Assembly (NCBI RefSeq): GCF_902713615.1
Contig: NC_052171.1
Coordinates: forward strand, 806,001-870,000
DNA length: 64,000 nt
Source: Scyliorhinus canicula
Taxonomy: Eukaryota
Direction of reading: 5' to 3'
The notes beneath the pieces were generated by a model. It searched no databases and was not told the origin of the DNA. It saw only the letters and a list, made by a program, of their open reading frames with translations. The position numbers were made by a program, and so were the translations under genes. The stretch's first letter is position 1; each line of letters opens with the position of its first letter. Shown here in pieces: positions 2,036-55,119 of the stretch.

Positions 2036-2966
2036 AGTCCCAAGTCATTTCATCTGACTCACCAAATTCAGTTTCAGGTCCTATTTTGCCAAGAAACAAA
2101 GTAAAATGATTCACACTTGAGAAATTAACTTTACCTGCTTATTTGGTTTTCCCACCATTTCTCCATATACTAGAAGCACCAACAATACAGGATCTTTCCA
2201 AGGCACCAGCAGCCATCTGATACGTGGTTTGAACAACTTACATGAACAAAGCACCTTTAACAAATTCTCAGCATGCTCGGCGATGTTTGACTAAGTGTCA
2301 GCAAGTGATTTAACATGGGAAGCCTCAACAGCTCAATCTGATCTTTCTATCCCTGATCATTGGGCAGTATTCAGGGCCAAGCGGTGAATTCAATTTCCTT
2401 CCTTCAAGCTCAAGGACATGAAAGCTAATTGGCAGATCCTCAACTGCCAAACTGGCCAAGATCAATACTTGAATCTGGGGCTTACCTGGTCCACATGATG
2501 CAGCAAAATATCACACCCCAGTTCACAAATGAACTTTTAAAGAAGCTTGTCACACCAGGTATGTTGACCACACCTAGAATAATTTGCTGAGGAAGGTTTT
2601 ACAAACATGCCTGTGGGTTCTCAGTGGTCCTCATCCATTTAAAATGTCCCACTGATTTTCTGGAACATTTAATCTTGCAACCAAGATGCCTTCACTCAAC
2701 TCCAATTCCATCAGGTCTTCATGCACAGGACTCGGTACATGCACAGGAAGCAGTAGGTGAACCAATTTAGTCTTCTGCCAATCCTACCCCAGAACTACAA
2801 CCACCTCCCCCATCGGCCAACTAAGTGCACCAAGCCATGCAATTTGATTGCAGTTAGGGCACAAAAAATGACCGAGGGGCAAGCCTGATGACACTGAGCA
2901 TTAAACATCCAAGCAGGTCAGCTCCACTTACCCGCCTACTCACCATAACCCTTCATTTGTTTCGTA

Positions 2967-20233: not shown

Positions 20234-20458
20234 CTTTTTAAAAATAAATTTAGAGTACCCAATTCATTTTTTCCAATTAAGGGACAATTTAGCATGGCCA
20301 ATTCACCTACCCTGCACATCTTTGGGTTGTGGGGTGAAATCCACGCAGGCACGGGGAGAATGTGCAAACTCCACACGGACAGTGACCCAGGGCCGGGATT
20401 CGAACCCGGGTCCTCAGCGACATAGGCAGCAGTGCTAACCACTGTGGCAACGTGCCGC
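20234..20458 (-). mobile_element. SINE type C
   Basis: 16-bp TSD agaccagcta(c/t)tatct. Confidence 0.9.
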
Positions 20459-20694
20459 CTACAGACCAGCTATTATCTAATTGAATAGCTCCAGGGGCCA
20501 AATGGCCAACTCCTGTTCCTGTGATGGTACACACGGAGGTGGAATTTCAACGAATTCAGTGAGGAGCACAGGCAAATCTGCAGATCAGGTGGATGGATAG
20601 CAGCTGTAACAATGAAGATAAATATAAGATCAAACATTGTTGGACAAAAATGAGGAACAGATGTAGTCAATGGAAAGATGCTGAGGAGCATGGA

Positions 20695-34339: not shown

Positions 34340-35280
34340 GACGGCACAAAAATAAGCCACCTCGCCTATCATCATCTGCGTCAGCCAAAAAAAGAGCCAT
34401 CCCACTTTGCAGCATTCGGTCAGTCGTGCAGGTCTGGGCGCGGGAGATACAATGAGTTGAGGTTTTTTGCCCCCACAACGCTTTCAGACCGTGAGTTCCA
34501 AACCCCCACAACCCTCTTGAGTGAAAATTATTTTCCTCATCTCCCCTTTAATAATTCTACCAATCATGTGAAATATATGCTCTGTGTCACTGACCACTCT
34601 GTCTAATAGAGTGACATTGTTTCTGTAACAAGGTGACCAGAACTGCACACAATACTCAAGTTGTGGCATGACTAATGTTTTCTACAGTTCCAGCATAACC
34701 TCGCTCCTTTTATATTCTATGTTTCGGCTAATAAAGGAAACTATTCCACATGCCTTCTTAACCACCTTATCAACCTGATACTTCCGATGGTCTGTGGACA
34801 TTCACTCCAAGGTCACTTCCTCAACATCTCTCAGTTTCCTCCCATTTATCATGCAATCCTTTGCCTTGTTTGACCTCCTCAAATGCATCATCTCACATGA
34901 TGCGACCATCGATTCACACAAAGACACGAGTAGAAGCAAACCGAGGTTTTAAACAGCTTAGAACAGTGCCTGCCTGCGACTAGTACAATATTGTGGACCG
35001 CCTACAAGTCAACTGCTCTTTATACTTCCTTTCAAAGGGAGGAGCCATGGACGGAACCCGTACATGCCCCAACATATCCCCCTGTGGGTGAAGCCACACA
35101 ATGGCCCATAGGTGAAGCCCACAAGGTCAACAACATAACATAGCTGTAACACAATGGCAGAACATGATACTAATACACTGGTAAATTACTAGTACTACAC
35201 ATTCACCACATCACCCTCCTCTGGGTTGAACTCCATTTGCCACTTTTTTGCCCATCTGAAAAATCCATTGCTACCTTCCT
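34340..35280 (-). mobile_element. Degraded CR1 LINE fragment
   Basis: ORF 34484-34669 contains PQLEYCVQFWSP. Confidence 0.75.
34898..35210 (-). mobile_element. Solo LTR related to the Gypsy element at 36611
   Basis: tgatgcgaccatc...acattcaccaca termini shared with the 36611 LTR; TSD tcaca/tcacc. Confidence 0.85.
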
Positions 35281-36610
35281 GCAATGTAAACATACAGAAT
35301 GGGAGGCAATGGTCACTTCCAAACCATTGACAACTGCCGCCCAGATGGATAAGGGCAGCAGGAACTTATGAGAACACCACCACCTGCAAGTTCCCCTCCA
35401 AGTCACACATCATCCTGACTTGGAAATATATAACCGTTCCTTCACTGTTGCTGAGTCAAACCCCCAGAACTCCCTAACAGCACTGGGAGTGTACCTACAC
35501 CACATGGACTGCAGTGGTTCAGAAGGCAGCTCACCATCACCTGCTCAAAGGTTCTTTAGGGATGTGCAATTAATGCTGGCTCAGCAAGCACTGCCCACAT
35601 CCCATGAATGAATCAAAAACATTCCGACCTTATTTGGGATTGTTTATTTTGGATTTGATCGGATAGCTTTCCTCCATTCACTATCACCTGCTTCCTCTGA
35701 GCTGCCACCGGCTGTTGTAGTTCTGGTAATGTGTCACGCTTCCCAAAAATATATATTTTCAAGACTTTCGGAAAACTCTTTGCCTCCCTGGCTCAGGTAA
35801 TGCCTTTTTCTCTTTCATGGGGAGTTTTCTTTCCCTTTTTTGAAGCTCTGCAGCACAACTTTAAGAAGAAAACTTTTGATAGCTTTTGATATTCCATTGA
35901 AGCTTTGCATCATGACTAGTTCATCCACAAGTTCACCAAACCAGAATCAAAAGGTATTAATCAGGACATTTTCTGACTCTCTACATATACTTGGTTTACT
36001 CCAGCAGTGTAGAAATTATCCTCTCATGGACACCACATTTCCCACGAGGTTTGACCCTTGAATAAGTCCAAAATTATTGTGGATGATTGAAATTCTGATC
36101 CATGGCTGAATTTTTTAAGGTACAGATTCTGCTTGAAGAGCTTTCTGAATTTCAAGATGGTGTCACTTTCATTTGGAGACAAAGAGATTTCCCATGCTTG
36201 TGGCTTTGATGGGCTTCACTGCAATGGTGACCGTGATCAGCTTGAAAACATTTTTAACAATGCATGCCTGGAATGGGTGCCCGCAGAGTTTATTTGCTCT
36301 GTGTTTATGTTCAAAGTCACAAATTCATCTGATCTTTGATTTTGCTTGCCTTTAACTGGATTTGGAAAGTTGCAATTCTCTGAGAGCATTCAATTAATTA
36401 TTTGAAAATAATTTCTCAGCTAACTTGGAGATATGAAGTTCCGGCGGCAGCTACGTGGTGAGCAGTCATACACACGGTAGCTTCCATCAGGGTACTTTGT
36501 TTTTGGCCAGTTTGTAGGTGATGTTGGGGGGGAAACTTGAGTAGTTCGATGGGATAAGTTCCCACGTAAAAGTAATGCCCAACAAGTGTAACACAAGGCA
36601 GCAGACAGGC

Positions 36611-39600
36611 TGATGCGACCATCAATTCATTCAGAGACACGAGTTGAAGTAAACTGTGGCTTTAATCAGCTTACAACTGAGCCTGCCTGCGACTGTACTA
36701 AACTGAGGGCGGACTCGCAGGACCGCAGCACTTATACTTCCTGAAGGGGGTGGAGCCGAGGGCGGAGCCCTGTACATGCTCCTCATCTCCCCCTGTGGGC
36801 AGAGTCGTGCAACGGCTCACAGATGGAGCCCAGAGGGACACAGTAATGTACAGTGTGAATTATAGTGGTTACACATTCACCACATTCACCCCCTGTTAAA
36901 AAAATCAAGTTCAGCAGGGGTGACGGGTCTACAAGTTCAGTCGGTCCGGCGCCCGAATCGTGCGTAGCGACCGACGAAGTACCGGTGTTGCAGCCGTCTC
37001 GGATGGCTGTGGAAGGATGTTCGGTGCGGGTCCGGGAGTGGACTCCGGGGATGGTTCTACCTGAGCTTCGTTCCTGCAAACCGGTGTGTAGGGCGGAAGG
37101 GAGCACGGGTAGCAAATAGGCACAGGGGCGCAGGGCATGGGAGGTCGGGTGGGGTGTAGAGTGGGAGGTACATCGGCGGTAGTGGTAGTAGAGTTTCAGG
37201 TGCCAGGTCCCGGAGGGAAATGGTCTCCTGTCGGCCATCAGGGTGTTCAACGAACGCGTAGTGGGGGTTTGAGTGCAGGAGTAGGACCCTCTCTTCCAGG
37301 GGGTTGGTCTTATGTGTCCGAACGTGTTTTCGGAGGAGGACAGGGTCCGGTGTCGTCAACCAGGGCGGAAGCGAGACCCCCGTAGTAGTTCCCTAGGGAA
37401 GGCAAATAGGCGATCATGAGGAGACTGATTCGTGGCCGTACAGAGGAGGCACCTAATAGCATGGAGCGCATCGGGAAGGACCTCCTGCCAGTGGGAGGTC
37501 GGGAGATTCCTGGACCGTAGGGTCAGTAGGATGGTCTTCCAGACCGTCGCATTCTCCCTCTCCACCTGCCCGTTCCCCCTGGGGTTATAGCTGGTAGTCC
37601 TGCTTGAGGCCATGCTGTTACTGAACAGGTACTGACGCATCTCGTCGCTCATGAAGGATGAACCCCTGTCGCTGTGGACATAGTTAGGGAAACCGAACAG
37701 GGTCAAGACACTGTGCAGGGCTCTGTTGACTGTATGGGAGGTCATATCGGGGCATGGGATGGCAAACGTGAAACGGGAGAATTCATCTATAACGTTGAGG
37801 AAATAAACATTGCGATTAGTTGAAGGGAGGGGCTCTTTGAAATCGATGCTCAGGCGTTCACAGGGCCGGTATGCCTTTACCAGGTGTGCCTTGTATAAGA
37901 CCATAAGACATAGGAGCGGAAGTAAGGCCATTCGGCCCATCGAGTCCACTCCACCATTCAATCATGGTTGATTTCAACTCCATTTACCCGCTCTCTCCCC
38001 ATAGCCCTTAATTCCTCGAGAAATCAAGAATTTATCAATTTCTGTCTTAAAGACACTCAACGTCCCGGCCTCCACCGCCCTCTGTGGCAATGAATTCCAC
38101 AGACCTACCACTCTCTGGCTGAAGAAATTTCTCCTCATCTCTGTTCTAAAGTGACTCCCTTTTATTCTAAGGCTGTGCCCCCGCGTCCTAGTCTCCCCTG
38201 CTAATGGAAACAACTTCCCTACGTCCATCCTATCCAAGCCATTCATTATCTTGTAAGTTTCTATTAGATCTCCCCTCAACCTCCTAAACTCCAATGAATA
38301 TAATCCCACGATCCTCAGACGTTCATCGTATGTTAGGCCTACCATTCCTGGGATCATCCGTGTGAATCTCCGCTGGACCCGCTCCAGTGCCAGTATGTCC
38401 TTCCTGAGGTGTGGGGCCCAAAATTGCTCACAGTATTCTAAATGGGGCCTAACTAGTGCTTTATAAAGCCTCAGAAGTACATCCCTGCTTTTATATTCCA
38501 AGCCTCTTGAGATAAATGACAACATTACATTTGCTTTCTTAATTACGGACTCAACCTGCAAGTTTACCTTTAGAGAATCCTGGACTAGGACTCCCAAGTC
38601 CCTTTGCACTTTAGCATTATGAATTTTGTCACCGTTTAGAAAATAGTCCATGCCTCTATTCTTTTTTCCAAAGCGCAAGACCTCGCACTTGCCCACGTTG
38701 AATTTCATCAGCCACTTCTTGGACCATTCTCCTAAACTGTCTAAATCTTTCTGCAGCCTCCCCACCTCCTCAATACTACCTGCCCCTCCACCTATCTTTG
38801 TATCATCGGCAAACTTGGCCAGAATGCCCCCAGTCCCGTCATCTAGATCGTTAATATATAAAGAGAACAGCTGTGGCCCCAACACTGAACCCTGCGGGAC
38901 ACCACTTGTCACCGGTTGCCATTCCGAAAAAGAACCTTTTATCCCAACTCTCTGCCTTCTGTCTGACAGCCAATCGTCAATCCATGTTAGTACCTTGCCT
39001 CGAATACCATGGGCCCTTATTTTACTCAGCAGTCTCCCGTGAGGCACCTTGTCAAAGGCCTTTTGGAAGTCAAGATAAATAACATCCATTGGCTCTCCTT
39101 GGTCTAACCTATTTGTTATCTCTTCAAAGAACTCTAACAGGTTTGTCAGGCACGACCTCCCCTTACTAAATCCATGCTGACTTGTCCTAATCCGACCCTG
39201 CACTTCCAAGAATTTAGAAATCTCATCCTTAACGATGGATTCTAGAATTTTGCCAACAACCGAGGTTAGGCTAATTGGCCTATAATTTTCCATCTTTTTT
39301 CTTGTTCCCTTCTTGAACAGGGGGGTTACAACAGCGATTTTCCAATCCTCTGGGACTTTCCCTGATCCCAGTGACTTTTGAAAGATCATAACTAACGCAC
39401 CACTATTTCTTCAGCTATCTCCTTTAGAACTCTAGGATGTAGCCCATCTGGGCCCGGAGATTTATCAATTTTCAGACCTTTTAGTTTCTCTAGCACTTTC
39501 TCCTTTGTGATGGCAACCATATTCAACTCTGCCCCCTGACTTTCCTGAATTGTTGGGATATTACTCATGTCTTCTACTGTGAAGACTGACGCAAAGTACT

Positions 39601-42600
39601 TATTAAGTTCCTCAGCTATTTCCTTGTCTCCCATCACTAGATTACCAGCGTCATTTTGGAGCGGCCCAATGTCTACTTTTGCCTCCCGTTTGTTTTTAAT
39701 GTATTTAAAGAAACTTTTACTATCATTCCTAATGTTACTGGCTAGCCTACCTTCATATTTGATCCTCTCCTTCCTTATTTCTCTCTTTGTTATCCTCTGT
39801 TTGTTTTTGTAGCCTTCCCAATCTTCTGACTTCCCACTACTCTTTGCCACATTATAGGCTCTCTCTTTTGCCTTGATGCATTCCCTGACTTCCTTTGTCA
39901 GCCATGGCTGCCTAATCCTCCCTCTGATAACCTTTCTTTTCTTTGGGATGAACCTCTGCACTGTGTCCTCAATTACTCCAAGAAACTCCCGCCATTGCTG
40001 TTCTACTGTCTATATGGTCTATAGAAGAGCGGTTTACACTCCGCGCAGATCGAGCAATTCCTGGTGACGGCTTTAACCTCTTCCGTGAAGAAGGGCAGGT
40101 TGCGGGCCTAGATGTAATGGGCAAGCCGGGTGACCCCCGGATAGCAGAGGTCATCGCGGATCGCCTGAAGACGGTTGTCTTGCGCGCTGGCGCATGTGCT
40201 GCGGGACAGGGCATCTGGGGGCTCATTGAGCTTCCCAGGATGATATACGATATCGTAATTGTAGGTGGAGAGTTCAATCCTCCACCGCAAGATTTTGTCA
40301 TTCTTGATTTTGCCCCGCTGCGAGTTGTCAAACATAAAGGCAACCGATCTCTGGTCGGTGATGAGGGTAAACCTCCTACCTGCGAGGTAGTGCCTCCAGT
40401 GCTGTAAGGCTTCCACAATGGCTTGGGCTTCATTTTCGACTGAGGAGTGTCGAAGTTCCGAAGCGGAGAGGGTTCGGGAAAAGAACGCTACTGGCTTGCC
40501 TGCCTGGTTCAGAGTGGCAGCGAGAGCGACTTCTGAGGCGTCGCTCTCCACCTGGAATGGGACGGACTCATCTACCGCCCGCATGGCAGCTTTGGCGATG
40601 TCCACCTTAATGCAGTTGAAGGCCTGGCAAGCCTCTGCTGACAATGGGAAGTGTGGGCGGGCTTTATCCGCATACTGGGGGATCCACCGGGCGTAGTATG
40701 AAAAAAAACCCGAGGCACCTCTTGAGGACCCTGGAACAGTGAGGGAGAGGGAGTTGTAAGAGGGGGCACATACGGGCAGGGTTGGGTCCTAGGACTCCGT
40801 TTTCCACGACGTAGCCGACGATGGCTAGCTGGTAGTGCGGAAAACGCATTTCTCCTTATTATAGGTGAGATTGAGTTTTTGGGCAGTTTGGAGAAATCGG
40901 TGGAGGTTGGCGTCGTGGTCCTGCTGGTCATGGCTGCAGATGGTGACATTATCCAAGTACAGAAAAGTGGCCCCCAGCCCGTACTGGTCCACCATTCGGT
41001 CCATTGCTCATTGGAACACCGAGACCCTGTTTGTGACACCAAAGGGAACCCGGAGGAAATGGAAAAGGCGGCCGTCTGCCTCGAACGCCGTGTAGTGGCG
41101 GTCCTCCGGGCGGATTGGGAGCTGGTGATATGCAGACTTCAGATCCACTGTGGAGAATATACGGTACTGGGCGATCTGATTTACTATGTCTGCAATCCGG
41201 GGGAGGGGGTACGCATCGAGGTGCGTGAACCGGTTAATGGTCTGGCTGTAATCAACCACCATCCGGAGCTTTTCCTAGGTTTTGACGACCACCACCAGAG
41301 CTCTCCAGGGGCTATTACTGGCCTCTATGACTCCTTCACGCAAAAGACGCCAGACTTCGGACCTGATTAAAAACCCTGTCCTGCAGGCTGTACCTCCTGG
41401 AGAGTGGCCACTGGTTAGCGAAGAGTGGAGGGGGGTCAATTTTCAGAGTTGCTAGACTACAAATAGTGAGTGGGGGAAGGGGCCCGTCAAAGCTGAGTGA
41501 TAGGCTCCTGAGGTTGTACTGGAAATCCAGTCCTAGGAGGAGGGGGGCGCAGAGGTCTGGGAGCACATACAATTGGAAATTGGTGTAGTCGGCGCCCTGT
41601 ATTGTCAGAGTCGCAGTACTGTGCCCCTGTATTTGGACTGAGTGCGACCCCGAGCCGAGGGAGATTATTTGCTGTGTCGGGAACATCGGGAGCGAGCAGC
41701 GCCTTACCAGTTCTGGGTGAACGAAGCTCTCAGTACTTCCGGAGTCGAACAGGCACGGTGTCTCGTATCCGTTGATCTTGACGGACATCATGGAGCTCTT
41801 GAGGTGCTTTGGCCGCGACTGATCCAAAGTGGCTGCACTGAGCTGCGGGTAGTCGGTGGCGTGGTCGGCGGTGCTGGAACGGCCCCGTGATGACTGTCCG
41901 CGGAGGTCGTAATCTTCGAGTGACGTAACGGGTGATGGCCCAGATGGCGGCCCCCGTTGATCGCACGTGGCGGGCAGCGAGGAAGATGGCGCCCAAGATG
42001 GCGGCCCCCATGAATCGCGCATGGCCGGCCGCGTGGGGGAGGATTGCCAAGATGGCGGCCCCCGGGAGTCGCACATGTTGTGCGGAGGTGGAGTCGGCAG
42101 TCACGCTGCCACATTACGGGGTCTGCGGGCCTGGGAGTCGGAGGAGCGAGTGTTCGGGTTAGGGTTCGAGTTTTTAGATTTGGCCAGGCAGACCTTCGCA
42201 AAGTGCCCTTTTCTCCCGCAGCTGCTGCAAGTCGCATTTCGGGCTGGGCATTGCTGCCGGGCGTGTTGGTGCTGGCCGCAAAAATGGCACGATAGCCCTC
42301 CGAGGTGGGCGGGTGGCCGCGCGGCACAGGCCTGGGGCAGTCTTTGGTCGGGGGGTCCACGACGGGGTCGCGTGATCGGCCGGGAACGCAGTTAGGCTTT
42401 GGAAAGCAACAACCGTGTCCTCCAGGTCCTGGGCCCCTTTCTCGAGAAGATGCTGCCGCACATAATTAGATCGGACCCCTGCAACATACACTTCTCAGAC
42501 GGCGAGTTCCATGTGCTGGGAGGCTGTCACGGCCTGGAAGTTAAAGTCGCGTACTCGGGCTTTAAGGTCGCGCAGACAGTCTTCTAGCGATTCCCCAGGG

Positions 42601-43192
42601 CGTTAGTGGCGTGTTGTAAAGATGTGTCACGTGTAGACTTCATTCACGGGCCGCACGTACAGGCGGTCGAGTATCGTATAAGAGTCAGTATAAGAGTCAG
42701 TTACATCAAGTTGAGTAGAAATACGATGGCTCACCCGTGCGTGGAGGAGACTGAGTTTCTGTTCTTCTGTAACAGAGGAAGTAGTCGACGCAGCCAGGTA
42801 GGCCTTGAAGCACCGAATCCAATGCAAAAGAATTTCCTTTGCTTCTGCGGCCTGTGGATCGAGTTCCAGTCGGTCAGGTTTGAGGGCTGATTCCATAGTA
42901 GTTTTTAAGTCGATTAAATTGATGCAACCATCAATTCATTCAGAGACACAAGTTGAAGTAAACTGTGGCTTTAATCGGCTTACAACTGAGCCTGCCTGCG
43001 ACTATGCTGAACTGAAGGCGGACTCGCAGGACCGCAGCACTTATACTTCCTGAAGGGGAGGAGCCGAGGGCGGAGCCCTGTACATGCTCCTCATCTCCCC
43101 CTGTGGGCAGAGCCGTGCAACGGCTCACAGATGGAGCCCACAGGGGCACAGTAATGTACAGTGTGAATTATACATATTATACATTCACCACA
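36611..43192 (-). mobile_element. Gypsy (Mag-like) LTR retrotransposon, near full-length, decayed
   Basis: LTRs 36611-36884 and 42920-43192; perfect 5-bp TSD caggc; purine-rich tract aacagggggtgaa; gag with CCHC, protease FDSGS, RT (DLKSAYHQ..PFG), RNase H (ESDAS..TDQRS), integrase (VHSDRG..NGQVER) in Gypsy order. Confidence 0.95.
37895..40011 (-). mobile_element. Young 5'-truncated CR1 LINE inserted in the Gypsy integrase
   Basis: Open 471-aa RT ORF (37974-39389) plus a 189-aa upstream frame separated by one frameshift; splits the integrase between FYRP and KAHLVKA. Confidence 0.95.
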
Positions 43193-44970
43193 CAGGCAAA
43201 GTATCGTCGTCGGACTCAGGAGTTTTTCGAGCCTCGCTGGTAGAGAAAATGGCAGAGGCTCCTGCTGGAACTTTGAACTATCCATGGACAGCCAAGATGC
43301 TGGCAGACATCTTGGTGGAGGAATTCAAGAGGTAGCAGCAGGTGGACTCTGAGGATCTTCGTTCGTGTGGCAATGGAAAAGACGGTTCGGAAGTTAAACG
43401 AGCAAGGCTTGGTGATGCAAGGGGTGGAGGTGGCATTCTTGAACCACCTGGATTATTTATCTGGAAGCAGAGAAGGCGGTGCTGACTGACACGCAGAAGG
43501 CGGTGAAGGAAGTTCCAGATGGGGCAATTTGAGAGTAGTTCGGCATCAGAGGATCTGGAAGGACAAAATCCGTCAGACTATATGTTCAGGATGTTTAGGA
43601 AGTTGGTGGGAATTGGATCGGGCCCATCGGTCACTCAGGCAGACGCCCCGATCTGGAGAACCACCACGGGCTATCATTGTCAGGTTCCACAGTTACCAAC
43701 AGAAGGAACAGGTCCTGAGTAGGTGAAAGACCATAGAGACTATGGATAAGAGGGATATGCCATCAGGATATATCAAAATGTGGAAGCAGAACTGACTAGG
43801 TGTGCAGCGTTCAACAAGGCCGTGTTGTATAGAAGTAATGTGCGATTCAGGGTGGTCTACCCTGCACATCTTCAAATGATTTTCAAAGAGAGAGGCTATT
43901 ATTTTGAGGCGCTGGATGATGCGGCCAAGTTCGTAAAGAAGCATGGGCAGGATGTGAATCAATTGTTAACTGGTAGACGCATTTGTATCTGTATTTAGTG
44001 TGATTTTTTGTATTGTGGATGAGGGCATGTGATTATGGGGATTTCCTCGGAGGGTGGTTCTGGGCATGTTTGGTGTTTGTATTTTGTATTTTTGGAGTTG
44101 TTTGATGGATGGGTGTTGGTTTTCTTTTCCCTTCTGTCTTTTTGTATTAAATTTGGATGTGGGCAGGGGCTGGTTGTCAGTATGATTATTTTCCTGGGTT
44201 TACTCTGAGCGGGGGTCACCCTGCTAGCTGTAAAGTTAGTTCATAGGAGCGGAAGAGTTGGGGTAACTACTGCTCATTACTTTAGTTTTTTTTAAATTAA
44301 TGAGTGTAGAATTTTTGTTCTTATTTTGTTTGGGGTTGGGTGTGGGGGTGGAGGATAGGAGTCTATATTCTCCTTTTGGCTGTTTGTTTGTTTATTGGGA
44401 TATGGTAGTGCTGGGTGGCAGAGTGGAGGGAAGGAGTAAACCATGGATGGTGACTGATTCTTTGTCTTTGTTCTGGTTTTATGGCCGGTTTGGTGGCCAT
44501 CTTGGGTGGGCCTGGTATCCGCCACTCGTTGAGTTTCGGCTGGGTAACCCCACGTGATGGGAATGGCTGATAGGGTGGCTGACTGGGTTGGTGGCGGAGT
44601 CGGGGTGGGGGTGGGGGGAATGGTGGAAGGCCCCTGTCTGGCTGATAACTTGCAATGTAAGAGGGGTTGAATGGCCTAGTTTTCACACCTCAAGGCTGAT
44701 GAAGGTCCTACAGGGGACCCATTGTGGATCAAGGACCAAACATGGGTATGGAAGGGTTGAATGGGACATGTATATCATTTGGGTTTCAATGGTACGGCTT
44801 GGGGGGCTGCAGTGTTGATCAACAAGATCAGCTGAGAAAATATGGGTGGGCCCAGGTGGGAGTATGTAATTGTCAGCAGACAGTGGGTCGCTGGCAGGAG
44901 GTCGGTGGTCCTAGTTAATTTGTGTGCACTGAATTGAGATAATATGGCATTTATCAAGGTCAAGTCCTAA

Positions 44971-48580: not shown

Positions 48581-50439
48581 CTTTCCAGCCACTGAAGCGC
48601 TTTTGAAATTTGGTGACTATTGGCATGCCAGCCAGTTTGTGCACACGATCTCACAAACAGTGATGTGTGTCATAATATACACACAGGTATATGATGGTGC
48701 ACAGACAGGCAGTGATTGACACACAGGATGACCAGTGAACACACAGAATACAGCAGCCAATCACCAGACAGGACACAGCCACTATAAAGCCAGCGGGCAC
48801 TAGTTTTCTCAGTCAGAGCCCGTGAGCAACAATTGGAGCGTCCACCATGTGGTAGTAGGATAGTCTGGTCAGATGGGCCTCAGGTCTCCAGTCAAGTCAG
48901 CATAGTGTCAACCCACAGTTAAAGTATGTATGATAGTTAAGAGTTCAATAAAATTGAGTTGCATTTCTTCAAGTGTTGGAAGCCTGTCTCTCTCACTACT
49001 GCAGTAAACGCAGTCCTTGCAGACCCAGCTTGCCCAACACATCATGGTACCAGTGAGTCATGCTCGAGTTTGACGGACCTACCTTGAGATAATCTGCCTT
49101 TGACCAGCGATCAGCCATCCGGTAACACGGACAGCGTCCGCCCTCCCCCACAGCTCCGCATCGCCGGCAACCTCGGTGCCAACTGGAAGATTTTCAAGCA
49201 GAAGTTCCAGCTGTATCTTGAAGCCACCGACCGCGATGCCCTATCGGATGCCAGGAAGATCGCTCTCTTCCTCTCTACAGCCGGGGACCATGCCATCCAC
49301 ATCTTTAACTCCCTCACCTTTGCGAAGGCGAGAACAAGACAAAGTTTAAAACAGTCCTGCTGAGGTTCGATAGCCACTGTGACATCGAAGTCAACGAGAG
49401 CTTTGAACGCTATGTGTTCCAGCAGAGGCTTCAGGGTAAGGATGAACCTTTTCAGTCCTTCTTAACCCATCTCCGTATCCTCGCACAGTCCTGTAACTAC
49501 GGCTCCACTTCCAACTCCATGATCCACGACCAGATCGTTTTCGGAGTCCACTCCGATCCCCTTCACCAGCAGCTCCTTGAAGTTAAGCAGCTCACCCTTA
49601 CCATCGCCATTGAGACCTGCGTCCTCCACGAGCACACTAACAACTGGTACTCCCATATCAAGGTGGCAGAGACGGCGCGGCAAGGCCCCCACGATGCGGA
49701 GCGGGTGCAGGCCATAAAACAGCTCCAGGGCCTGAGTCTGGATGAGGGCAGCCATTTTGCGCGCTTTTCCTGGGCTCCTGCACATGCGTGCCACAACCAA
49801 GGGGACGGCAATGCCAACGACCGAACTGCGCAGGTGCGCACATCGTTCGACCGCACCGCGCATGTGACGTCGCCGCCATGACGTGCAACAACTGTGGCTC
49901 CGCCCATTTAAAGCGGCAATGTCCCGCAAAATCTCGACACTGTCTCCAGTGTGGCAAGCTTGGCCACTACGCAGCCCTGTGTAGATCTGCTCAACTGCCC
50001 AACACACAGCGATCCCAGCCGCAGCGCAGGAACATCCGGTCTGGACAGCAACCTGTTACAGTCTCCAACTCCGACTTGGTTCCAGATCCCTACACTGAGG
50101 GCCTCACATCCCCATTCCAATTGGGCATCATCATCAAGCCTACGATGCTTTCAGCCAAGAAGGTGAAACAACTCCCAGTGATGAGCATTGATCCGGACGA
50201 CGAGTGGTGTGCCACCCTTACAGTCAACAAGGCTCGCATACGCTGGACAGCGGTGCTTCAGCAAACCTCATTTCAAAGTCTGATCTTGACACCATCCGCG
50301 TCAAGCCAAGCATTCTTCCACCGGCCTGCCAACTCATCGACTACAATGGCAATGCCATTGCTGCCAGTGGCTCATGCCAGCTTGCGGTATCCCATCGTTC
50401 TTCAAAAGCAACCCTGCGTTTTGAAATTGTAGGAACCAA

Positions 50440-50580
50440 CAGAGCTTCCTTGCTCGGTGTTCGGGCCTGACAGAGCTTCCTTGCTCGGGCCTGACAGAGC
50501 TTCCCTGCTCGGGCCTGACAGAGCTTCCCTGCTCGGTGCTCGGGCCTGACAGAGCTTCCCTGCTCGATGCTCAGGCCTGC
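50440..50580 (+). repeat. Tandem repeat, five 24-31-bp units, inside Gypsy pol
   Basis: Unit cagagcttcc(c/t)tgctcg(gtgctcg)ggcctga. Confidence 0.9.
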
Positions 50581-51567
50581 AAACTCCTGAACCTTGTGCA
50601 GCGGGTTCACACCATGTTGTCCGCAGAGGCAACGGCCTCGCCAGATGCTAACGTCCAAACCCAATTCGATGACATCATAGCACAATACCACAGCATCTTC
50701 GAAGGTATGGGCACACTCCCCTACTGATACAAGATACTGCTGAAGCCGAATGTTACACCTGTGGTTGATGCACCACGTCGGGTGCCGGCGCCCCTTAAGG
50801 ACCGCCTCAAGCAGCAGCTGCAAGACCTCCAGGACCAGGTCACGGAACCCACGGACTGGGTTAGCTCCATGGTTTGTGTCAAAAAACCGTCAGAGGAACT
50901 TCGCAATTGTATCGACCCCAAAGATTTGAACCGTAACATCATGAGGGAACACTACCCTATACCTAAACGAGAAGAGCTCACCAGCGAAATGGCTCTCGCC
51001 AAGTTTTTCACGAAGCTGGATGCCTCCAAGGGGTTTTGGCAAATACAGCTGGATGCGTCCAGTCGAAAGCTGTGAACATTTAACACCTCGTTCAGTCGCT
51101 ACTGTTACAACCGGACGCCCTTTGGCATCATCTCCGCCTCGGAGGTGTTCCACCGAATAATGGAGCAAATGATGGAGGGCATCGAGGGGGTGCGAGTGTA
51201 CGTCGATGATATTATCTGGTCCACGACTCCTCAGGCGCACATCGATCGCCTCAAGTGAGTGTTCCACAGGATCCACGAGCATGGCCTCAGACTCAATAGA
51301 GCCAAATGCTCGTTCGGTCAAGCAGAATTCGTCACTCGCCACAGAGACTGAATTTATAGACTGAATGTTTCATTGCCTTGTGCTTCGTTTACACATCTGT
51401 ACATATTGTTTCTTCCTCATTTGTTGTATGCAATCTAACTGCACTTGACACCTTCCCATGTAAATACATTCACATACTTTGTACATAGTCAGGCTCATAC
51501 ACACATTCACTATTTATTGACATATACACATTTTTCCTTGGTTCCTAATAGTTAAGAGTTCAATAAA

Positions 51568-51940
51568 TTCCCGTGGAAAGAGAGGGGGCGGGGCCGGATG
51601 CTGGGAGGCGGTATTGGACTGGAGTCCACATTGGTTTGCAGGGGGTGTGGAGGGGGGGACTTGGGTTTTAGGAGGGAATTCTGCGGCGATCAGTGGTAGA
51701 GGCGGGAGCGGCCGGGGTCAGCAGGAGTCAGCTGACTTACGGGAGTGCAATGGGGGGAGTAGGGGGGTCAAGCAATTGCTTGGCCGGTGGGGGGGGGGGG
51801 GTTTCTGGGTTGCTGCTGTTATGACCGAGGGGGAGCTGGAGATAATAGGGAGAGTCAGGGTGGGGAGCCTCTGCCTGGGGGGCTGGAAGGAGCGGGAGAC
51901 GTGTGCAAGTGGCTGGCCCAAAAAAGGAGATGGAGTCGGT

Positions 51941-51976
<36 letters not shown>

Positions 51977-54354
51977 AGTCCCCCGATCCGGCTGATCACG
52001 TGGAATGTGAGAGCCCTAAATGGGGCGGTCAAGAGGGCCCGGGTACTTGCGCATTTAAAGGGACTGAAGGCAGACGTAGCCATGCTACAGGAGACGCACC
52101 TGAAAGTTGCGGATCAGACCAGGCTGAGGATGGGATGGGTAGGGCAGGTCTTTCACTCCGGGTTGGATGTGAAGAACAGGGGGGTAGCAATATTGGTGAG
52201 CAAGCGGGTGACTTTCGAGACGGTGGGCATTGTGTCGGATAAAGAGGGCCGGTATGTGATGGTGAGTGGTAGGCAGCAGGGGGCCCGGGTAGTGCTGGTG
52301 AATGTAAATGCCCCAAATTGGGACGATGCGGGGTTCATGAAGTTATTCCCAGCTCTTTATGGTGCATGCGCAAGGCCAGGAAAAGAGGTTGGAGGAGCTG
52401 CCGCTCAAGATGGTGGAGAGGGGTTTTCGGTATTTGGGTACTCAGGTGGCCAAGAGTTGGGAGGGTCTTGCATAGGCTCAATCTGGCGCGGCTGGTGGAC
52501 CAGATGGAGGAGGACTTTAGGAGGTGGGACATGCTTCCGCTCTCCCTAGGTCAAGATGTCGTTCCTCCCTAGGTTTTTGTTTGTGTTTCAGTGCCTGCCC
52601 ATCCTCATTCCTTAGGCCTTCTTCAAGCGAGTGAGCAAGAGTATCATGGGATTTGTGTGGGCCAATAAGACCCCAAGGGTTAAAAGACTGTTCTTGGAGC
52701 GCAGTCTGGGGGGGGGGGGGGGGGGTGGTTGGCGCTGCAGAATCTGTGTAGCTACTACTGGGCAGCAAACGTGTCGATGATTCGGAAGTGGATGATGGAG
52801 GGAGAGGGGATGGCATGGAAAAGGCTAGAGGCGGCGTCTTCTGTAGGTACTAGCCTGGGGGCACTGGTGACGGCACCGTTGCCACTTCTGCCGACGCGGT
52901 ATACCACGAGCCCGGCGGTGACAGCGACGCTGAAGATTTGGGGGGCAATGGAGGCGGCACAGGGGGGAGACGGGGGGGCCTCAGTTTGGTCCCCAATACG
53001 GAATAACCATAGGTTTGCCCCGGGCAGGATAGATGGTTCCGAAGCTGGCACCAGGCGGGAATTAGAAGGCTGGGGAATCTATTAATTGACGGGACTTTTC
53101 TTTCTTTTTTTAAATGAATTTAGAGTACCCAATTCATTTTTTTTTCAATTAAGGGGCAATTTAACGTAGCCAATCCACTTAATCTGCACATCTTTTGGGT
53201 TGTGGGGGCGAAACCCACGCAAACACGGGGAGAATGTGCAAACTCCACACGGACAGTGACCCAGAGCCGGGGTCGAACCTGGGACCTCAGCACCGTGAGG
53301 CTGCAGGGCTAACCCACTGCACTACCGTGCTGCCCTATTGACGGGCCTTTTGCCAGCTTTGCACTGGAGGAGAAATTTGGGTTACCCCTGGGAAATGCTT
53401 TAGGTACATGCAGGTTCGGGCGTTTGTCAGGAAGCAGGTAGGAGAATTTCCATTGCTGCCCGCCCGAAGGATACAGGACAGGGTGATTTAGGGTGTGTGG
53501 GTCGGAGAGGGTAAGATCTCGGAGATATACCAGGAGCTGCAGGAGGCGGAGGAAGCCTCGGTGGAGGAGTTGAAGGGCAAATGGGAGGAGGAGCTGGGTG
53601 AGGAGCTGGATGAGGGCCTGTGGGCTGACGCCCTGGGTACGGTCAATTCCTCCTCATCTTGCGCCAGGCTCAGCCTGATCCAGTTTAAAGTGTTACACAG
53701 GGCGCATATGACAGGTGCGAGGATAAGTACGTTTTTTGGGGTGGAGGACAGATGTGTGAGGTGTTCGGGGAGCCCAGCAAACCTCCCCCATATGTTCTGG
53801 GCGTGCCCGGCGCTTGCGGAGTTCTGGACGGGCTTTGCATAGGTCATGTCCAAGGTCTTGGACACTCGGGTAAAACTGAGTTGGGGGATAGCGTTATTTG
53901 GGGTATCGGAGGATCCGGGAGTGCAGGAGTCGAAAGAGGCCGGAGTTGCCTTTGCCGCCTTGGTAGCCCGGAGAAGGCTCTTGTGAATGTGGAGGGATGC
54001 GAAACCCCCAAGTGTGGAGGCTTAGATCAATGACATGGCGGGATTTCTCAGGTTGGAGAAGATAAAGTTTCCCTTCCGAGGGTCTTTGCAGGGGTTCTTC
54101 GGGCATTGGCAACCGTTCCTTGACTTTCTCGCGGAACGTTAGGTGGAAGCCAGCAGCAGCAGCAACCCCGGGGGGGGGGGGGGCTGATTTCTTTTCCTTT
54201 TTGAAAGGGGCGCTTGCCCTACTTTGTTTTGAGTTGGGTGTTAATTTGTTAAACTTTATCGTTTAGAGGATTAAGTTGTTTTTTGTATTATTTTCCTTTT
54301 TGGAGTGTTCTGTAAAACTTTTTGAAAAACTTTGAATAAATACATTTTTTTTAA
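51568..54354 (+). mobile_element. L1-clade LINE, 5'-truncated and internally deleted, inserted in the Gypsy 3' LTR
   Basis: 14-bp TSD aagagttcaataaa (51554-51567, 54355-54368); endonuclease ITWNVRALNG..LQETHL; C-terminal CVRC..HMFWAC; AATAAA near the end. Confidence 0.92.
53101..53335 (-). mobile_element. SINE type C inside L1
   Basis: Approximate TSD attgacggg(a/c)cttt. Confidence 0.88.
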
Positions 54355-55119
54355 AAGAGTTCAATAAAATCGAGTTGCATTTCTTCAAGTGTTGGAAACC
54401 TTCCCTTTATCACTGCTGCAGTAAACGCAGTCCTCACAGACCCAGCTTACCCAACACATCAATGTGAACATGATCAGAGAACAATGCCTGCATTTCTCTG
54501 CTTTCCCCTCACCTCCATTTGTGTGGCTTATAATGTGCTCTGGCTCACCCTCCTCCTTAACTGGATGTCAGCTTGGTTTAGTTCCACAGGTATGAAGAGT
54601 TCCCAGCATCTTTCCCACTGCACATTCTTTCCCCTAGCCTAGACAGTCAACACTGACAAGTTATGAACGCCAGGTAAAAAGAGGGTGACATCAGATATCC
54701 TATGAGCGCACCACCATATATTTTTGAAGCTCCTATTTCCTTTTTTTTTGCAGTCTTTCCCAGGCACATCTCTTAATTCCTTTTGGAATTGCAAATTCGA
54801 ACTTGTGCAACAATCAGACATATGAAAGGACCTAAAATCAACTTATAAATTCTAATTTTCCCCAAAGCAACTGAATAACAATCTGAAGTGTGTATTTTGA
54901 CAAGAAACAGAACAGTGACTTCATCAGGTTTGGATTATATTAGTATTGGGACTAAAACACAGGCATTGGGCAGGAAAGAATTTGCTGCCCCAGACGCAGA
55001 GTTCATGACCTCAGCCAACTGCTTTTCACAGGGGAGGGACAAAGACAGTTAGAGAATGAGTATGTTTGGTAATCTAATAAACAATTTTGCACATATATAT
55101 ACCGAGGTCTATAAACACT

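Follow-up and report, generated by a model that had tools for sequence, protein, structure and literature searches.

The window, a 64,000-nt stretch of the Scyliorhinus canicula genome, contains a decayed Ty3/Gypsy element that spans 43192-36611 on the minus strand and carries at its 5′ end the pairing feature described here. Two TG...CA LTRs, a target site duplication and a polypurine tract provide the hallmarks of a Ty3/Gypsy element. The 5′ LTR of 273 bp (42920..43192, TGTGGTG...CATCA) and the 3′ LTR of 274 bp (36611..36884) are identical at 257 of 273 aligned positions, the sequence GCCTG is found at both element flanks (36606..36610 and 43193-43197) and the polypurine tract (36885..36897) adjoins the 3′ LTR. 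Between the LTRs, and like them on the minus strand, lie gag (42104..42896), which is interrupted by stops and frameshifts and has two zinc-knuckle-like motifs, an aspartyl protease frame (41339..42100), a piece of a broken reverse transcriptase (RT) gene (41011..41274), an RNase H frame (40111..40788) and a broken integrase core and C-terminus (37060..37961). The order of gag, protease, RT, RNase H and integrase, which is that of Ty3/Gypsy, is given by the window pieces together with 12 relatives; a Pfam profile search with the gag pieces returned no match. Within the integrase region sits a 5′-truncated LINE on the minus strand (37895..40011, approximate ends), which we take to be CR1-like, and three 54-bp repeats are present between gag and protease at 41934-42098. 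The best named protein matches are from sharks and rays (at most 78% identity), followed by cnidarians, a nematode and a rotifer relative, and a search with the LTR-gag junction gave 3182 candidate matches in the element's own 4.2 Gb genome. Elsewhere in the window are a solo LTR from a sister family (34898-35209, minus strand), leader-bearing copies of which pair 13/13 (L040), and dispersed short SINE-like repeats, for example at 531-1061, 20262-20461 and 53134-53271.

On the sense strand of the element the 5′ LTR ends ...GCATCA and is followed by a single spacer A (42919) and then by the leader TTTAATCGACTTA (42918-42906, minus strand), the core of a primer-binding position that covers 42903..42919 with the spacer included. 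The gag ATG (42896-42894) is 23 nt from the LTR end, in keeping with the approximately 25 nt given in the preliminary description of this DNA. Between the leader and TAAGCCGATTAAA (42982-42970), itself the core of a minus-strand LTR segment (42970..42985), 12 of the 13 positions are complementary; the sole mismatch is a C.A at column 9, and a longer duplex of 16 columns takes in one further mismatch. This segment ends in ATTAAA (42975-42970), with GTATAAG upstream at 43046-43040, so that both signals that had been noted were located. The loop between the duplex arms (42920..42969, minus strand) comprises the remaining R and U5, begins GCC and has a predicted stem. The 12/13 complementarity claimed at the outset is borne out by these coordinates, by shuffled LTRs and by the pairing of other families with different letters.

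The leader stands where a tRNA primer site would otherwise be found. It is common to 29 of the 29 anchored copies in the window cluster, letter for letter in 25 of them, and the LTR-leader junction has 77 exact copies genome-wide. A TGG-type primer site was present in 0 of the 46 clusters surveyed, the anchor motif itself excluding TGG, and the independent evidence is therefore that of relatives whose LTR ends are fixed by their 3′ LTRs, in which the leader likewise begins ATTT or similar. Scanned against a tRNA sample of 19 distinct short sequences and five anticodon types, the leader gave no match, the longest run being 8. The claim that this element lacks a tRNA primer-binding site is thus upheld by relatives without TGG and by a family-wide leader. 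Deletion of an ordinary tRNA site in the window copy was considered and ruled out, the leader being the normal state of the family. The second Gypsy of the window (about 48660-54461, plus strand) had been credited with an ordinary tRNA-Leu-like primer site, and a TGG does lie directly 3′ of its LTR, at 49045; this element is presumably Mag-like and its site presumably that of tRNA-Leu. The tRNA sample contained no Leu gene. It carries an inserted LINE with an endonuclease-like frame (51521-52549), and of its 3′ LTR the end alone was seen.

Loci for a lineage-wide survey were gathered by protein or LTR similarity, pairing not being a criterion, and extend down to 44% RT identity to one relative; none were found in viral contigs. 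Among L001-L200, 132 have a gag start, 130 have enough upstream DNA and 124 could be anchored, resulting in 46 clusters at 80% identity. The two loci left out for too little upstream DNA (L069 and L072) both pair across contig ends by eye. Six unanchored loci were also left out (L071, L075, L089, L106, L124 and L159), of which L075 and L124 pair by eye; the divergent L075 (92-197) pairs 12/12 in another register, with a duplex end that has no poly(A)-like hexamer. In 40 of the 46 clusters, from the element's own genome and from metagenome contigs, the leader matches its own LTR at a score of at least 10, as compared with 206 of 2070 cross-family leader-LTR pairs and 24 of 2300 shuffled LTRs; the window duplex scores 11. 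The remaining six fall below the threshold through mis-anchoring (L088 and L149) or because the LTR segment is lost or interrupted (L157, L177, L178 and L186).

The 40 clusters selected at this score, 19 from the own genome and 21 from metagenome contigs, constitute the covariation set. Columns 4-9 and 11-16 covary with permutation p values of at most 0.003, which are optimistic because the clusters are score-selected and related. Column 10 is nearly invariant, column 7 presents all four pair types and pairing drops to chance level at column 17. LTR and leader thus covary and their complementarity is conserved across families, and on these alignments we consider it confirmed as real and clade-wide. 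Chance complementarity, or a decayed tRNA site in the window copy, would draw on the readiness with which AT-rich 13-mers pair, as seen in the 10% of cross-family pairs that reach the threshold, but is refuted by pairing that is both family-wide and covarying, and its probability is negligible. In folding ensembles the mean pair probability of the duplex is at least 0.77 in 32 of the 40 clusters but 0.16 in the window family, a value that counts against the pairing there. Shuffled sequences fold as well as the window region (whole-region z -0.13), where U5 is also predicted to form a rival hairpin across the end of the LTR.

The geometry of the duplex is as constant as its letters are variable. 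The spacer reads CAA in 38 of the 40 clusters and CAG in two, and RCC, that is (A/G)CC, follows directly after the duplex end in 35, with a stem starting at this RCC predicted in most loops. Duplex length ranges from 11 to 20 bp and loop length from 21 to 87 nt. The final six bases of the duplex are AATAAA in 13 clusters, ATTAAA in 14 and another hexamer in 13, among them TGAAGA, TGAAAA and TTCAAA, with the pairing kept. As the leader tracks the R segment of its own element only, as no constant site for an outside primer is present, and as the duplex ends one base from the LTR, these observations point to self-priming. We propose that the element would prime minus-strand DNA synthesis with an RNA segment derived from its own LTR rather than with a tRNA, a reading to which we give a probability of about three in four. 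The preliminary description had suggested self-priming from an RNA end formed near the poly(A) signal, and lineage-wide covariation, fixed geometry and a hexamer that works in a related family support it.

A different job for the duplex has to be weighed against this. It may merely mask the 5′ poly(A) signal or control gag translation while an outside RNA, such as a tRNA fragment or small RNA, primes, the A-to-G excess described below being due to editing. Consistent with this are the 27 of 40 duplexes that end in AATAAA or ATTAAA, a signal that works, the duplexes that reach or approach the ATG in several families and a tRNA sample of five anticodon types. Leaders nevertheless vary by family and track the LTR of their own element across 16 columns, which leaves no constant site for an outside primer. 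Furthermore, pairing is kept in the 13 of 40 clusters without a canonical hexamer, seven of which carry a signal-like hexamer in the loop instead, and it is kept in another register, with no hexamer, in L075; priming rather than masking is thus suggested as the conserved job. Finally, a constant distance of one base between duplex end and LTR is needed for priming and not for masking, and this favours priming. We therefore regard masking or translational control with an outside primer as improbable, and self-priming as the preferred reading.

Where the paired segment lies relative to the start of transcription bears on the form that self-priming takes. The window element has a predicted TATA box, GTATAAG (43040..43046, minus strand), supported by strict-motif spacing in the own-genome clusters, of which 14 of 19 have the strict TATA motif 72-76 nt before the duplex 3′ end. 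An initiator-like TCAGTT (43008..43015, minus strand) places a putative +1 at 43013, at a distance of 32 nt downstream from the TATA T. The corresponding CA(G/T)T is found about 31 nt behind the TATA, a spacing kept across divergent own-genome families, and in 12 of the 19 puts the last duplex position between +43 and +45. The paired segment is thus predicted to lie probably inside R, at about +29 to +44, rather than at +1. In Tf1 the self-primer is the 5′ end of the RNA (PMC10085805), and the same may be imagined here, with a transcript that begins where the duplex begins on its 5′ side, so that its leading 13-18 nt serve as primer, and with the upstream TATA and initiator having no part in the replication start. 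Tf1 itself works in this manner (PMC10085805 and PMC4600332), primer length would equal duplex length and leave no unpaired tail, and the duplex starts at a pyrimidine-purine step in several own-genome families. A strict TATA at about 75 nt is also absent from the 21 metagenome clusters, three of which have a TATA at 38-41 nt. The retention of both the 72-76 nt and the 31 nt spacing across divergent own-genome families speaks against such a start, which furthermore implies 60 nt from TATA to start, a spacing that is unusual for vertebrate polymerase II. We consider this geometry unlikely, though less so than the masking alternative; it is a sub-case of self-priming, and its share is included in the probability given above.

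RNA reads provide a view of the hexamer at work. In run X19, for the related family L291, 24 reads share a poly(T) loose end (agreement 0.57) that lies 16 nt past the end of the hexamer; with three genomic A's allowed for, this places the poly(A) site 13-16 nt behind the hexamer. This evidence comes from one run and one family, in which 5′, 3′ and solo LTRs are indistinguishable. In this related family the hexamer functions as a polyadenylation signal, and 3′-end mapping at the LTR hexamer, as raised in the preliminary description, has found a poly(A) tail. In runs X21 and X22 the reads over leader and gag are almost all of one strand, which is the sense strand if the usual library convention holds, and read depth is continuous from LTR through leader to gag with no gap. 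No step marking a transcription start was seen in the short reads, where 3′ LTR reads overlap; nine read starts cluster at 42965 in one run and are absent from the other three. An index search gave no RNA data set containing the window stretch, and a pattern search for an expressed family gave no match. The proximity of the poly(A) site to the segment, a mere 13-16 nt, also invites the suggestion that the primer is the same segment from another source, namely the 3′ copy of R, the other of two co-packaged RNAs or a truncated transcript that stops at the 5′ poly(A) site. As the segment is part of R it occurs at both RNA ends, and sequence cannot tell which copy pairs. The short loop of 21-87 nt favours intramolecular pairing instead, and Tf1 uses the 5′ copy (PMC5341516, PMC10085805); we rate another source as having a rather small chance, on a par with masking.

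Self-priming from the 5′ copy would proceed as follows. Transcription would start at the TATA/initiator site, and in the resulting RNA the segment would span roughly +29 to +44. This segment would then pair with the leader, so that a single base separates its 3′ terminus from the end of the LTR. Cleavage at the AAA/(A/G)CC step, in the window between 42970 and 42969, would leave a 3′-OH; the RNase H of the element is the probable nuclease, as in Tf1. Strong-stop DNA would copy the loop of 21-87 nt and may then transfer to the 3′ LTR by way of the stretch of R, 13-16 nt long, that separates the cut from the poly(A) site. During plus-strand synthesis the primer may sometimes be copied, which would rewrite the leader to match the LTR. 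As a side function the duplex may also keep the poly(A) signal of the 5′ LTR, and that signal only, out of reach, because the leader is present at the 5′ end only. In a primer of 44 nt approximately 28 bases on the 5′ side would be unpaired and would have to be taken off or escape copying, a problem that is absent in Tf1. In its fullest form, in which self-priming arose in this lineage independently of Tf1/sushi, a capped RNA of about 44 nt is cut at the hexamer, the duplex is both primer maker and mask of the 5′ poly(A) signal, and primer copying renews the primer site with every cycle and thereby keeps the arms covarying, the model is tentative, possible rather than probable.

Column 9 offers a footprint of the duplex. 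In the window subfamily the LTR has C opposite a leader A, whereas the sister subfamily has an LTR T in 20 of 20 checked, making a perfect pair, as does L143; the LTR C is thus likely derived. A matching G at leader column 9 is found in 12 of 94 copies in the mismatched subfamily, as compared with 12 of 1056 at 12 other A positions in 88 leaders and with 0 of 85 in the sister subfamily (Fisher p 0.0004 versus the window subfamily). On a gag tree that kept 58 of 69 gag stretches, the G copies require nine changes for 10 copies and their grouping as a clade is rejected (AU p 7.6e-6), a test that is weakened because the family recombines; G copies are present in both gag haplotype groups. In L377 both duplex mismatches are altered to match its own LTR. 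Column 9 also has two T and two C, in copies without the matching LTR base, and 11 G versus four others is within normal transition bias. Compared with the most mutable single control site (5/88) the surplus of G falls short of significance (p 0.19). Column 14 was likewise tried for conversion but has too few changes (one C in 91; one C and one T in 94), and the 13% frequency of G is far under the 50% expected if the primer were fully copied. A-to-I editing at an A.C mismatch would yield the same G. Both primer copying and editing need the duplex in the copied RNA, and either cause would show the duplex, while priming would be shown by primer copying only. The gag sequences of L317-L356 and L002-L030 form two haplotype groups with many mosaics, indicating frequent within-family recombination.

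Among known systems the closest likeness is to Tf1 and Tf2 of Schizosaccharomyces pombe and to the Tf1/sushi chromoviruses (Tj1, Tosmo1-3, Tcry1 and Tcn1), which share the Ty3/Gypsy domain order, the absence of a tRNA site, a primer-binding position complementary to the element's own R and a stem behind the presumed cut, which for the window lineage is predicted. Of the three-duplex 'pretzel' structure of this group, what the loops of the lineage offer is this predicted stem at RCC. They differ in that 0 of 12 relatives of the window element have a chromodomain or a Tf2-type SH3, in that the window-lineage duplex is 11-20 bp, and in that its segment ends at a poly(A) hexamer and is predicted at +29 to +44, in contrast to the RNA 5′ end of Tf1. 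No chromodomain was found in the C-terminal frame of the window integrase by a scan that was positive in 8 of 21 other Gypsy C-termini; PF00385, used to seek own-genome chromoviruses as an outgroup, matched 20 of 71 candidates. RT-RNase H identity is near 30% whether the Gypsy element compared bears a chromodomain or not. In a quick tree with contaminant elements as references the lineage forms a clade by itself (SH-aLRT 100), with a long branch that lies outside the chromodomain and SH3 group. Grouping with chromoviruses is compatible with the quick trees (AU p 0.16 and 0.46), and as this tie is not rejected, an origin independent of Tf1/sushi stays a proposal. The lineage appears to work like Tf1/sushi but, because 12 of 12 relatives have neither chromodomain nor SH3 and the branch is long and their own, should not be classed there; a link to Cigr-1 is possible.

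Other likenesses exist outside this group. In retroviruses such as HIV-1, RNA structure masks the poly(A) signal of the 5′ LTR, and there too the hexamer is in a duplex at the RNA 5′ end; the partner strand in the window lineage differs in being outside the LTR, in the primer-binding position and at the 5′ end only. With animal Gypsy elements that are primed by a tRNA, the second window element among them, the lineage shares host range, LTR size, a 5-bp target duplication and a zinc-knuckle gag, and differs by the absence of the TGG that these have behind the LTR. The plant copia TAR lineage (Houba, Osr-1) is predicted to self-prime (PMC6317226), and likewise has a self-complementary primer site outside Tf1 proper, although in a different superfamily and in different hosts. 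The self-primers named across PMC3601003, PMC6317226, PMC6238403, PMC4600332, PMC5006619, PMC6934838, PMC10085805, PMC11042837, PMC5341516 and PMC4549124 are Tf1/sushi, Tcn1 and copia TAR. No description of self-priming for the window lineage was found in the full-text literature as far as it was accessible; it may be mentioned in Butler et al. 2001, in the Levin papers, in Repbase or in GyDB. What is likely new here is the probable occurrence of self-priming, demonstrated to date for yeast Tf1-type elements, in an animal Gypsy lineage of dozens of families.

If this is true, a second and abundant self-priming lineage exists in animals, with thousands of own-genome matches, and priming free of tRNA is common. 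Such elements may escape control by tRNA fragments aimed at primer sites, and annotation tools that require a tRNA site would be expected to miss or misclassify them. The mismatch-correction footprint furthermore allows RNA pairing to be tested from genome sequence alone in any predicted self-primer family. Several additional elements were noted. Prokaryotic assemblies yielded 97 stretches (L392-L471) with eukaryotic Gypsy RT motifs, some with chromodomains, which are likely host contamination. A PF24626 search identified abundant own-genome Gypsy-type elements with integrase before RT (L251-L270), presumably Gmr1-like. Locus L009, a copy of the window family, has an internally deleted element nested within it (2150-2700, reverse strand) that belongs to a different family of this lineage.
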